From Candidatus Iainarchaeum sp. (GTDB lineage: Archaea; Iainarchaeota; Iainarchaeia; Iainarchaeales; JAXPJC01), in the NCBI GenBank assembly GCA_016187745.1, contig JACPJC010000003.1, positions 32,001 through 96,000 of the forward strand: DNA of 64,000 nucleotides, in the 5' to 3' direction. Under the pieces are notes generated by a model. The model was not told where the DNA came from. It searched no databases and saw only the letters and a program-made list of their open reading frames with translations. Below, in pieces: positions 46,623 through 48,761 of the stretch; position 1 is the first letter of the stretch, and every line of letters starts with the position of its first letter. Position numbers and translations under genes: made by a program.

Positions 46623-46776
46623 GCGGGGGTGGCCCAGCCTGGCTACGGCGAGAGCCTGCTACCGACCCTTTTCTTTTTAGAAAAAAGAAAAGTGTTAGGT
46701 TATCCCAAAAGAAAAACCTTATGGGCAATAAGCTCTTGGGCGAAAGCCCGCGCGAGTTCGAATCTCGCCCCCCGCG
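46623..46776 (+). tRNA. tRNA-Ser(GCT) with 69-nt intron at 37/38 (46662-46730)
   Basis: Acceptor GCGGGGG/CCCCCGC, anticodon stem AGAGC/GCTCT, loop CT-GCT-A, long variable arm GGGCGAAAGCCC, T arm GCGAG-TTCGAAT-CTCGC; TTTAAATA upstream. Confidence 0.93.
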
Positions 46777-46797
46777 CATTTGAATCTGTGGAAAAAC

Positions 46798-47352
46798 ATG
46801 CGCTATAAATTGCTGCTGGTCCTGCTGTTTGCGGTTGCGCTTTTCGCTGCAATCAGCGTCTTGCGCCCGATAGGGGAAGCCGGGCTGAAGAGCCAGACTG
46901 AAGTTCCGGAACAGCAGAAAGTTTCCGCTTACTTCTGCCCCGAGGACGACTGCAGCGGCAAATTGATTGATGCGATTGGTAGCGCTAAAACTTATGTGCA
47001 CATTGCAATCTACTCCTTCACGCATAAGGGAATTGCAGATGCGCTTGTTTCAGCAAGGCTGCGCGGAGTGGAAGTGAAGGTCCTTTTTGACAGGCAGCAG
47101 GCGGGAAGCGAATTCAGCGTTGATGAAATTTTAAGCGAGGCGGGAATTGAGGTTAAGTATGATACGCTTTCGGGGTATATGCACGACAAATTCACGGTAA
47201 TTGATGACAGGATTGCGACAACAGGCTCCTTTAATTACACAAGGAATGCTGATGCGAGAAATGCCGAAAACCTTGTAATAATGAATGCCGAGGATGTTGC
47301 AATGAAGTTTGAACTTGAATTCCAGAAGCTTTGGGAGAGCAGCGGAAGCTAA
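46798..47352 (+). CDS. Phospholipase D-family (Nuc-like) nuclease with N-terminal TM/signal
   Basis: IYSFT, MHDKF.VID, TGSFN.T..A...N.EN; single HKD motif. Confidence 0.9.
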   Translation: MRYKLLLVLLFAVALFAAISVLRPIGEAGLKSQTEVPEQQKVSAYFCPEDDCSGKLIDAIGSAKTYVHIAIYSFTHKGIADALVSARLRGVEVKVLFDRQQAGSEFSVDEILSEAGIEVKYDTLSGYMHDKFTVIDDRIATTGSFNYTRNADARNAENLVIMNAEDVAMKFELEFQKLWESSGS

Positions 47353-48536
47353 AAAATCCTGACTTTTTTATATGCCCTGTCCGGCAGCCTGTTCACAATC
47401 CTTCTCGCATTCCTTATGTTCTTTACGGATTCCTCAAAATAGGGGTAGAACGCCCTTAATTTCAGGTCTTGCCTTTCCCTCGCAGGCCTGTATTTGTACA
47501 GGTCAATTTCCAGCTTCCTGCTTCCGAGGATTTTTTCAGCCTTAATAAGCTCGCGCAGCGCACCATCCTTTGTCATCGTGCCCGCAAGCCCCCTTGCTAT
47601 CGAATCAATTGAATAATTTTTCCTCCTGAAAAGCAGCCTCTCAAATGCGATTTTCTGCGCGGCATTGCGCAGCCCAAGCTCATTCATCAGCCCGAGGGAG
47701 AAAATGCGCGCATTTACGGCGCCTGCGGCCTGCGCAGCGGTTTTTCCCCTTGTGAATGGGATTCTCCGCATTTCCTTTCTCCTGCCCCCTGCATAAATCG
47801 CATGTTTTCCAACATGCGCCCTTGTTTCCTTGCCTATCAGATGGACATTTTCCGGGGTAAACGGAGCGCCGACAACCCTTTTTGAGAGCGTGCGCTCGCC
47901 GAATATTGTTGCCCTGTTTCTCCCGGCCTCTTTTGAATGATAAAGCGCATTGTCCGCTGCTTCCGCCATCATATCATAAATTGTTTTTGGGCTGCCTTTC
48001 ACAATTTCTGAAAATTTGCTTATTTTATAGCCGCGCCTGTCCTTTAACGGCTTATTTATTTCAGCAGCCTGCAGTCTCCTTACGGTTTCTGCGTCTGCAA
48101 TTCCCGCGCTGAATGTGGGAAAGCTCACCTTGTAGAATTTCTTCCCGTTTGCAATGAAATTCCGCCTGAGCGCTTCATTGAATTCCGCAATTACCCCCTC
48201 TGCCCGCTTTGCATCCATCGGAAGGAAAATCCTGAATTCCTCCCCCCCGAATCTTGAGGCCAGGGCGCCATGCTTTCTTGCAATCTCCGCCATTGTTCTT
48301 GTGTATAATTCAATTACCCTGTCGCCCATGAAATGCCCCCTGATATCATTGAACTTTTTGAAATTGTCAATGTCAAGCATTACAAGGGAATGCGCGCCGC
48401 GCCTTCTCAGAAATGGCCTTGCCATCCTCACCAATTCGTTATCCCTGAGGACAAAAGGGAATTTCTCATCCATTATGCCTTTCGGGAGCTTTTTCCTTGG
48501 CCCCCTTGAAAGCTGCCTTATGCGCATAAGAAACAT
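47349..48536 (-). CDS. GGDEF-domain protein (putative diguanylate cyclase) with basic extensions
   Basis: MLDIDNFKKFND..GH..GD, RFGGEEF, TFSAGIA, AD.ALY.SK..GRN. Confidence 0.88.
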   Translation of the reverse strand: MFLMRIRQLSRGPRKKLPKGIMDEKFPFVLRDNELVRMARPFLRRRGAHSLVMLDIDNFKKFNDIRGHFMGDRVIELYTRTMAEIARKHGALASRFGGEEFRIFLPMDAKRAEGVIAEFNEALRRNFIANGKKFYKVSFPTFSAGIADAETVRRLQAAEINKPLKDRRGYKISKFSEIVKGSPKTIYDMMAEAADNALYHSKEAGRNRATIFGERTLSKRVVGAPFTPENVHLIGKETRAHVGKHAIYAGGRRKEMRRIPFTRGKTAAQAAGAVNARIFSLGLMNELGLRNAAQKIAFERLLFRRKNYSIDSIARGLAGTMTKDGALRELIKAEKILGSRKLEIDLYKYRPARERQDLKLRAFYPYFEESVKNIRNARRIVNRLPDRAYKKVRIF

Positions 48537-48593
48537 TACGCAAACCGCATATAAAAATCTTTTTAATGTCTTGCTGGCTTATTTATTGCATAC

Positions 48594-48680
48594 GCGCGGG
48601 TTCCCAAGCGGTCTAAGGGGCAACGCTCAAGACGTTGTGGCTTAGTGCCTTCGGCGGTCCGAATCCGCCCCCGCGCACCA
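48594..48680 (+). tRNA. tRNA-Leu(CAA), CCA encoded
   Basis: GCGCGGG/CCCGCGC, anticodon arm CAACG-CTCAAGA-CGTTG, variable arm, GGCGG-TCCGAAT-CCGCC, ACCA. Confidence 0.92.
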
Positions 48681-48683
48681 ATC

Positions 48684-48761
48684 CTTTCTTTTTTAGGAAA
48701 AAAGAAAGTCTGGGTTTTACCCAAAGAAAAAATAGTTTTGAAGTTATCCCAAAAGAAAAAC
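48684..48761 (+). repeat. Hairpin plus 19-bp element shared with the tRNA-Ser intron
   Basis: CTTTCTTTTTT-AGG-AAAAAAGAAAG then GTTATCCCAAAAGAAAAAC (identical to 46699-46717). Confidence 0.85.

Follow-up and report, generated by a model that had tools for sequence, protein, structure and literature searches.

Two tRNA genes in a 64,000-nucleotide stretch of Candidatus Iainarchaeum sp. DNA (assembly GCA_016187745.1, contig JACPJC010000003.1, positions 32,001 to 96,000, forward strand; hereafter the window) each carry a short structured repeat, one inside the intron of tRNA-Ser(GCU) and the other just behind the 3' end of tRNA-Leu(CAA). Both copies are members of a large family of three-armed repeats of about 50 nucleotides (nt). 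Read on one strand, the unit consists of a flank (ACCAATCC or a variant of it), a pyrimidine arm (Y), a loop of 2-5 nt, a complementary purine arm (R), a linker of 8-16 nt ending in CC or CCC, and a third arm (R') in which R is mirrored, not repeated. Intrastrand (fold-back) purine-motif triplexes have this same sequence design. Members of the family obey the three-arm rule in many copies per genome, lie in sense orientation just past exon ends, are spread across lineages and are dispensable in at least one relative. The two window copies and the genes that carry them are composed of the following features, given in window positions.

46623..46660, + strand: 5' exon of tRNA-Ser(GCU) (aragorn -i, cloverleaf)
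46661..46729, + strand: 69-nt intron at the canonical 37/38 site, with a relaxed bulge-helix-bulge (BHB) motif of three out of four central pairs (aragorn -i, BHB read by hand)
46661..46667, + strand: 5' flank of the element, ACCGACC, a variant of the family flank (alignment)
46668..46678, + strand: pyrimidine arm Y of the intron copy (C T4 C T5)
46682..46692, + strand: purine arm R of the intron copy (A5 G A4 G), the perfect complement of Y in an 11-bp hairpin; loop AGA at 46679-46681
46693..46706, + strand: linker of the intron copy, with CCC at its end
46707..46716, + strand: third arm R' of the intron copy (A4 G A5), an exact mirror of R minus the clamp G, 10/10
46717..46729, + strand: tRNA-specific 3' part of the intron, source of the GCAA opposite anticodon-loop bases 32-35 (read from the sequence)
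46730..46777, + strand: 3' exon of tRNA-Ser(GCU) (aragorn -i)
48594..48680, + strand: tRNA-Leu(CAA) with encoded CCA (ARAGORN)
48684..48694, + strand: pyrimidine arm Y of the trailer copy (C T3 C T6), 3 nt past the CCA
48698..48708, + strand: purine arm R of the trailer copy (A6 G A3 G); loop AGG at 48695-48697
48709..48722, + strand: linker of the trailer copy, with a small GGG/CCC stem (fold)
48723..48732, + strand: cognate third arm R' of the trailer copy (A3 G A6), an exact mirror of R, 10/10
48743..48761, + strand: extra 'linker end + third arm' unit (A4 G A5), identical to 46699-46717

tRNA genes were called with ARAGORN, including its intron search (aragorn -i), and the cloverleaves were read by hand. 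The cut behind the 5' exon of tRNA-Ser is ambiguous by one base, since an A stands at both junctions. The acceptor stem of the hand-spliced tRNA-Ser is 7 bp long and its D stem has the 3 bp of class II tRNAs; the anticodon stem is AGAGC/GCUCU, the variable arm GGGC/GCCC, and the T arm is normal. The intron qualifies as an archaeal BHB intron in that its excision at 37/38 restores a canonical cloverleaf. Its BHB is relaxed: loop bases 32-35 (CUGC) face the intron GCAA with three out of four pairs, and C32 and its opposite A remain unpaired. Against the strict hBHBh' motif, which has two 3-nt bulges on either side of a 4-bp helix, the central helix likewise scores 3/4, the inner helix read by hand is just CC/GG, and minimum free energy folds favour other pairings. 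Rfam/Infernal returned no hit of any kind in the window, including at both tRNAs, and none at E≤1 on a 2.3-kb slice, and the same tools detect 35 tRNAs elsewhere in the genome. The two tRNA calls therefore rest on ARAGORN and on the hand-read cloverleaves.

A first reading of the window, made from the sequence only, had already described the relaxed BHB, the intron hairpin (arms 46668-46678/46682-46692, loop AGA) followed by a 19-mer (46699-46717), and a second hairpin with loop AGG 3 nt past the CCA of tRNA-Leu, followed by the identical 19-mer at 48743-48761. All of these are as described. The 19-mer occurs exactly twice in the window, and no further match appears at up to three mismatches (0.05 occurrences are expected, and two or more were seen in 0 of 100 shuffles). 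The 'degenerate unit' which the same reading placed between the second hairpin and its 19-mer (48714-48732) needs to be reinterpreted. The R of the intron copy, A5GA4, is matched by an R' of A4GA5; the R of the trailer copy is A6GA3, and the supposedly degenerate unit contains A3GA6, its exact mirror partner. The unit at 48714-48732 is the third-arm unit that belongs to the trailer hairpin, and the 19-mer at 48743-48761 is an extra, orphan unit of the A4GA5 type that is non-cognate to the neighbouring hairpin. Extra third-arm units are also found behind several other trailers in the genome.

To count the family we used the window's own genome (G000; 964 kb in 10 contigs with C labels, 45% G+C, 91% complete). 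An nhmmer search with a hidden Markov model built from 13 genome copies gave 26 sense matches in G000 at E<1e-5. A model-free detector, which is independent of sequence and accepts only perfectly paired pyrimidine/purine hairpins of 8 bp or more that are accompanied by a mirror arm with no more than one mismatch, found 30 three-arm motifs in the 964 kb and none in each of five composition-preserving shuffles of G000. Twenty-four of these 30 lie in tRNA genes and their near flanks, which make up 1.0% of G000: 11 in introns, 12 in trailers, one in a leader (tRNA-Glu), and none antisense. The first arm of the gene-nearest copy starts 3-10 nt past the gene end in ten of the trailers, the remaining two being further tandem copies at 59 and 60 nt; the first arm of intron copies lies about 3-9 nt past the 5' splice site. 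In all, about 18 of the roughly 44 tRNA genes of G000 bear a copy. The scan for enrichment at stable-RNA genes, which had been proposed as a check when only two copies were in sight, thus finds a family that is neither confined to this pair nor distributed independently of stable-RNA genes.

Near-identical subfamilies (57 nt) are common to introns and trailers of unrelated tRNAs, and three subfamilies each occur in both. Imperfect copies follow the 3' end of the 16S rRNA and the stop codons of ftsZ and cdc48, and a perfect copy follows sepF. In the rRNA operon (L007:6187-6534, corresponding to C4 30186-30533), the copy behind the 16S 3' end has an imperfect hairpin, and two copies belong to the spacer tRNA-Ala, one of them in the intron and the other in the trailer, before the 23S gene. 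Apart from the rRNA operon and the RNase P RNA, no RNA family known to Rfam adjoins the non-tRNA copies. Sequencing reads also mark the two window copies as repeats. Only four DNA runs, all of one groundwater study, contain the window stretch, and no RNA run was listed with it. The contigs of these four runs stop inside the element, and the summed depth is about 15x that of the flanks at 48650-48743 (845.7 vs 57.2 in X1) and about 3x at 46676-46769. No presence/absence variant of either copy was seen in these contigs. Depth and contig breaks at both copies are the behaviour of a repeat.

Two places in G000 are of note for the way in which copies sit in them. At C4 9650-10602 (L008:3651-4603), a small open reading frame (ORF) lies between the genes for tRNA-Ser UGA and GGA, both of which have an intron that contains the element, and ARAGORN merges the two tRNA genes into one false tRNA with an 869-nt intron. 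At C1 27598-27700 (L005:3599-3700), a TATA-like box is followed by a copy, a second short hairpin and then a 370-amino-acid (aa) ORF; the copy would be part of the mRNA leader.

The three arms of the family change together. In the hairpin, 98.7% of 230 cells are paired and four of the 11 pairs are changed on both sides, which is reached in 0 of 500 shuffles. The third arm was tested on a pool of the whole of G000 and 79 loci from relatives, in which arms were re-dealt among the records in 1000 permutations. Of the 125 hairpin records in the pool that have a third arm on one side, 25 are symmetric and hence uninformative, 88 fit a mirror better than a direct repeat, 12 are ties, and none fits a direct repeat better. 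An exact mirror arm is found in 91 of the 100 informative records, compared with a mean of 19.8 and a maximum of 31 after permutation. Exact mirror arms of up to 16 nt accompany 31 different asymmetric cores. When the clamp G is counted, in the relatives only (n=95), 64 are mirror, 25 ties and 6 direct; the single mismatch in most clamp-G copies is the terminal clamp G of R opposite the C before R'. The selection on structure that had been suspected from two perfectly paired hairpins is borne out, and it goes further than was then seen, because the third arm covaries too.

Neither a protein that reads duplex DNA nor an alternative Watson-Crick pairing explains why R' mirrors R. An antiparallel purine third strand needs such a mirror, and so, seen from the opposite strand, does a parallel pyrimidine third strand. 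The folding tools used here consider Watson-Crick pairs only. Three-way covariation of this kind is rare and, with 31 asymmetric arm types behind it, argues strongly at the sequence level for in vivo selection on a three-stranded fold.

We then looked for the family in 40 genomes of the same order, all of which belong to families other than that of G000. A covariance model made from 21 aligned copies matches 19 of the 40 (E≤0.001). The best match in each of these 19 genomes falls in a tRNA intron (8) or a 3' trailer (5) by ARAGORN, behind an anticodon loop by eye (1), or elsewhere or in an unplaced position (5). With the model-free detector, 95 motifs were found in 76 of the 79 relative loci (27 intron, 25 trailer, 1 leader, 14 near a tRNA but antisense, 28 other). 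The arms differ between genomes, there being 55 distinct Y arms among these 95 motifs. A composition proxy (10 pyrimidines, gap, 10 purines, gap, C and 9 purines) matches 31 of 41 genomes, and the reversed pattern, which served as control, gives 0-4 matches per strand. The family is present in about half to three quarters of the 40 relatives. A tRNA cluster of 1 kb in one of them (G001; L041, C1:393300-395100; Ser-UGA, Ser-GGA and Pro by ARAGORN) contains six three-arm elements, situated in introns, a leader, a trailer and one unassigned spot; their arms are all different and each has its own matching third arm.

A single exact arm type was moreover scanned over public genomes, one per species, and found at no fewer than 118 loci. 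Most are in metagenome-assembled genomes (MAGs) labelled Micrarchaeota, Aenigmatarchaeota, Iainarchaeum/Diapherotrites, Altiarchaeota, Woese-, Pace- and Nanoarchaeota. In the first 80 of these loci, 24 motifs are sense in a tRNA intron, trailer or leader according to ARAGORN, 5 are antisense and 51 lie elsewhere. That the two window copies resemble each other by chance, or arose by a local duplication of about 50 nt, would agree with there being just two exact 19-mers in the window, but is refuted by the 30 motifs against none in the shuffles, by the 19 matching relatives and by the at least 118 public loci; we attach practically no weight to it.

A few of the matches to the arm pattern are in MAGs with bacterial labels, namely Oscillospiraceae, Selenomonadaceae, a Gammaproteobacteria bin, Hydrogenedentota and candidate phyla radiation (CPR) phyla (L107, L113, L125, L141, L142, L166, L167, L176, L179). 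These matches could be due to chance, to contamination or to a true wider spread.

The element can be absent altogether. Ten of the 40 relatives are without a long-arm motif. In G002, which is a single contig, all 37 tRNA matches span 89 nt or less, and the 24 inspected tRNA flanks, including those of tRNA-Ser(GCU) and tRNA-Leu(CAA), show plain T-runs with neither intron nor element. The comparison of orthologous tRNA-Ser genes suggested at the outset is divided: the element is in the tRNA-Ser(GCU) intron of both G000 and G035, and the tRNA-Ser(GCU) of G002 has neither. Short-armed versions occur in some of the fetched introns of G008. G011, G027 and G040 have tRNA spans of more than 100 nt, that is introns, and no long-arm motif, and G029 has many trailer copies with tRNAs that span at most 86 nt among the matches listed. 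Introns without elements and elements without introns indicate that the two are partly uncoupled. The suggestion that the element is a source of archaeal tRNA introns is not supported by this comparison.

The explanation that we favour, and hold to be about evenly balanced between right and wrong, is that the family is a structure-constrained DNA repeat which is carried as passive, harmless cargo in RNA that is spliced out or trimmed off; a function in RNA comes second and a terminator third. As for triplex formation, the molecule in which the fold forms and the way in which copies spread, we infer the following from the sequences. The tRNA-Ser copy would be cargo that fills most of a canonical-site BHB intron and is removed with it by the splicing endonuclease and ligase; the tRNA-Leu copy would be part of the 3' trailer and be lost during 3'-end maturation. 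Neither would be present in the mature tRNA. The repeat would be copied or converted between sites within one genome and would survive where it does no harm, which is 3-10 nt past exon 3' ends (in introns and trailers), in leaders, in rRNA spacers and at some intergenic spots. What is conserved would be the ability of one strand to fold as a hairpin plus third strand, probably in single-stranded DNA (the non-template or the replicating strand) rather than in RNA, and this fold would be needed for the persistence or the copying of the repeat and not for the function of the tRNA.

Several observations weigh against this cargo explanation. No gene that would copy the repeat was found: PF01797, the Y1/HUH transposase, has 0 matches at E≤1 in the 91%-complete G000, and a search of G000 for a DUF559 gene found none. 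The genome has three TnpB-like ORFs (Cas12f1-like_TNB, 389-440 aa; C8:69540-69734, C1:263173-263373 and C1:265794-265988), none of which adjoins a copy. Moreover, the element occupies the same site of orthologous genes in different families while all three arms are changed. This is the case for the tRNA-Ser(GGA) intron in G000, G001, G035, G016 and G026, for the tRNA-Ser(GCU) intron in G000 and G035, and for the tRNA-Pro intron and trailer in G000, G001 and G035. Such occupancy could mean a long-term function instead of cargo. All 24 tRNA-linked copies are sense, although a structure that forms in duplex DNA only would be indifferent to orientation, which suggests a constraint that acts on RNA or is coupled to transcription. 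The single mismatches in the hairpin, read on the sense strand, are 4 T/G and 4 C/A plus 1 other, numbers that are small for a wobble test of RNA versus DNA. Finally, the triplex itself is so far predicted from the arm sequences of the archaeal family.

The family may also have a role at the RNA level. The element might be a cis-acting module in which a compact, nuclease-resistant hairpin with a third strand past the exon end aids the maturation of stable RNAs. It could block 3'-5' exonucleases until the endonucleases have acted, prevent mispairing of long introns or trailers with exons, or offer the endonuclease a rigid helix beside a relaxed BHB. We consider such a module possible but rather doubtful. 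The sense orientation of 24 out of 24 tRNA-linked copies at a fixed short distance past exon ends speaks for it, as do the necessarily transcribed intron copies, the retention of the element at orthologous introns and trailers described above, and its presence in both spacers of the rRNA operon. The six differently armed copies in the G001 cluster are the outcome expected if cross-pairing within one transcript is avoided. Yet the element is dispensable, as the G002 tRNAs and the ten relatives without a long-arm motif illustrate, just about 18 of the 44 or so tRNA genes in G000 have one, copies also stand after or before protein genes, and the sense strand has no excess of G/U-type mismatches (4 vs 4, small numbers). 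Purine-motif triplexes with RNA strands are, in addition, generally held to be unfavourable. Less probable still, and in our view unlikely, is a more specific form of this idea that can be drawn from the arm sequences, in which the arms would make a natural purine-motif RNA triple helix (A.A-U and G.G-C, 10-16 layers) in the pre-tRNA introns, trailers and rRNA spacers of DPANN archaea and Altiarchaeota, as a functional component either of stable-RNA maturation or of excised RNAs that are stable. If so, it would be the first known natural example of this type of long RNA triplex.

The position of the Y arms, which place T4-T6 tracts 3-10 nt past tRNA ends, where G002 has plain T-runs, raises the question of a bidirectional terminator or insulator. 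The T-rich Y would end sense transcripts, and the T-rich complements of R and R' would end antisense transcripts that enter stable-RNA genes. The copies after the stop codons of ftsZ, cdc48 and sepF and the mostly trailer-borne copies of G029 fit this picture. It is weakened, however, because the element must be read through in the same orientation in 11 tRNA introns, including that of tRNA-Ser(GCU), for which no second gene copy was found in our scans. Termination requires neither the Y-R pairing nor the mirror R', and both are kept. The bacterial counterparts are also reported to have had no terminator activity (PMC4666352). We therefore regard a terminator as improbable.

The sequence-only reading had itself preferred a miniature mobile or REP-like (repetitive extragenic palindromic) element of tRNA genes. 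That the element is multi-copy, tRNA-associated and located in RNA that is processed out has been upheld; the enzymatic side has not, the check for a linked HUH/TnpA-like gene having found none in the 91%-complete G000 and the TnpB-like ORFs not being adjacent to copies. We likewise see little chance for the full form of this idea, in which a REP-like or miniature inverted-repeat transposable element (MITE), moved by a HUH-type enzyme, inserts into tRNA genes and thereby creates introns. Near-identical copies in introns of unrelated tRNAs and in trailers would be explained by it; 'transposed' intron families similar to these are known from Thermoproteales (PMC4090602), and the element-free G002 is also intron-free among its 37 detected tRNAs. 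Against it, the search of G000 turned up no Y1/HUH gene, and target-site duplications were not seen. An intron also needs, for each tRNA, a specific 3' segment that is complementary to the anticodon loop of that tRNA, and the element lacks one. The introns without long-arm elements in G011, G027 and G040, and the elements without introns in G029 among the matches listed, do not fit, and occupancy of orthologous sites across families speaks against frequent new insertion.

Several other candidates were considered and rejected. No box motifs of C/D-box, H/ACA or K-turn type were seen in the sequence. A promoter, with TTAT/TTTTAC as TATA box, does not apply, the tRNA genes having ordinary TTTAAATA-type boxes about 30 nt upstream and the distance from element to gene start varying between 6 and 56 nt. 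A BHB-like cut at the junction of tRNA and trailer is not supported, as flank and linker form a 4x4 internal loop closed by ACC/GGU and not a BHB. The gene enclosed by an inverted pair of copies on C6, a potential composite transposon, is ftsZ. A bacterial-type intrinsic terminator would consist of a G+C-rich hairpin and a U run; here the hairpin is A/U-rich, with the U-rich tract as its 5' arm and an A-rich run behind that tract. Finally, no TnpA/TnpB stands beside the repeats, as would be expected for a MITE derived from IS200/IS605.

Between the two window copies lie a PLD-like ORF (46798-47352; PF13091, E=1e-29) and, on the minus strand, a GGDEF ORF of 395 aa (47349-48536; PF00990, E=7e-19). 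GGDEF proteins are uncommon in archaea, and G000 looks DPANN-type. The copies do bracket the two genes, as had been pointed out, but the arrangement appears to be coincidental: the copies belong to their respective tRNAs and run in the same direction. On C1 of G000, tRNA-Arg(TCG) (L009:272-316, + strand, C1 38271-38315) and tRNA-Cys(GCA) (L019:391-435, - strand, C1 137290-137334) have a common conserved 5' leader of about 30 nt, in which an obvious TATA box is replaced by a GGAAGGTATCGGAAACG..TTTCTGATT-type motif that includes a small GAAAC/GTTTC hairpin.

The family ties together two questions, the origin and movement of archaeal tRNA intron sequence and the role of intrastrand triplex repeats in prokaryotes. 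Its elements stand in defined, transcribed, single-copy contexts and are thus a clean test bed for whether the fold acts in DNA or in RNA. In practical terms, the repeats fragment metagenome assemblies and mislead tRNA finders in DPANN genomes. Our literature search found no paper that describes the family; the genome lists of A/T-rich motifs that supplement PMC4666352 lay outside this search and might include archaea. In the library searched we also found no work that links tRNA introns with triplexes, triple helices, H-DNA or mirror repeats, and the element does not appear in listings and abstracts on tRNA introns of DPANN archaea or Micrarchaeota.

Some known systems share single traits with the family. 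In Thermoproteales, very similar BHB introns are found in tRNA genes of different identity (Fujishima et al., 2010, via PMC4090602), which implies that intron sequence is copied at the DNA level. The unit described here is only a part of the intron and is also found in trailers, a leader, rRNA spacers and mRNA flanks. Furthermore, the intron copies of G000 are at the canonical position only, the three-arm rule is not described for Thermoproteales there, and the lineage is another one. REP, BIME and REPIN sequences with their RAYT enzymes are likewise short structured extragenic repeats with covarying hairpins, often at the 3' ends of transcription units, but a mirror third arm and a link to tRNA introns are absent from REPs, and no RAYT/Y1 gene was found in G000. 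Like a canonical archaeal BHB intron, the tRNA-Ser intron sits at 37/38 and its removal gives a normal class II tRNA-Ser; unlike one, it has a relaxed BHB (3/4) and its 69 nt are mostly a repeat that is common to non-intron sites. The homopurine mirror repeat formed by R and R' is the classical signature of H-DNA, which, however, needs no inverted-repeat Y arm on the same strand. The antisense strand of the element, with two U-rich tracts and one A-rich tract and a single C/G interruption, resembles the U.A-U triple helices of the ENE-MALAT1 type, but an ENE-type helix would here require antisense transcription.

The nearest known kind is found in bacteria. TMECO, also called BoxC or PIT, is an intrastrand triplex motif for which a purine-motif DNA triplex has been observed in vitro (Holder et al., 2015, PMC4666352); its function is given as unknown, and earlier work cited there saw neither promoter nor terminator activity. 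It has the same order on one strand, with a pyrimidine stem, a loop, a purine stem, a loop and a mirror purine stem, and it is also multi-copy, mostly non-coding, very different in copy number between related genomes and without a known mobilising enzyme. The archaeal family agrees with this class in its Y-R-R' order, in the complementarity of R to Y and in the mirror relation of R' to R, and departs from it in the second loop, which is 8-16 nt long instead of the 3 nt (N3) of TMECO; the loops given for ITxF motifs are 1-6 nt, and the first archaeal loop is 2-5 nt. TMECO is G/C-rich with one consensus, whereas the archaeal family is A/T-rich and its arms vary freely from copy to copy. The archaeal repeats do not have the G/C-rich CCCTCNCCC-type stems and are not of the TMECO/BoxC sequence family; their arms are built of T/C and A/G with 1-3 C or G per arm. 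They are anchored in sense just past tRNA and rRNA exon ends, including inside introns, which also sets them apart from TMECO/BoxC/PIT. The triplex of TMECO was measured in vitro, whereas the archaeal family is known from its sequences. The repeats of the window thus have the same design as TMECO/BoxC in a different sequence family.

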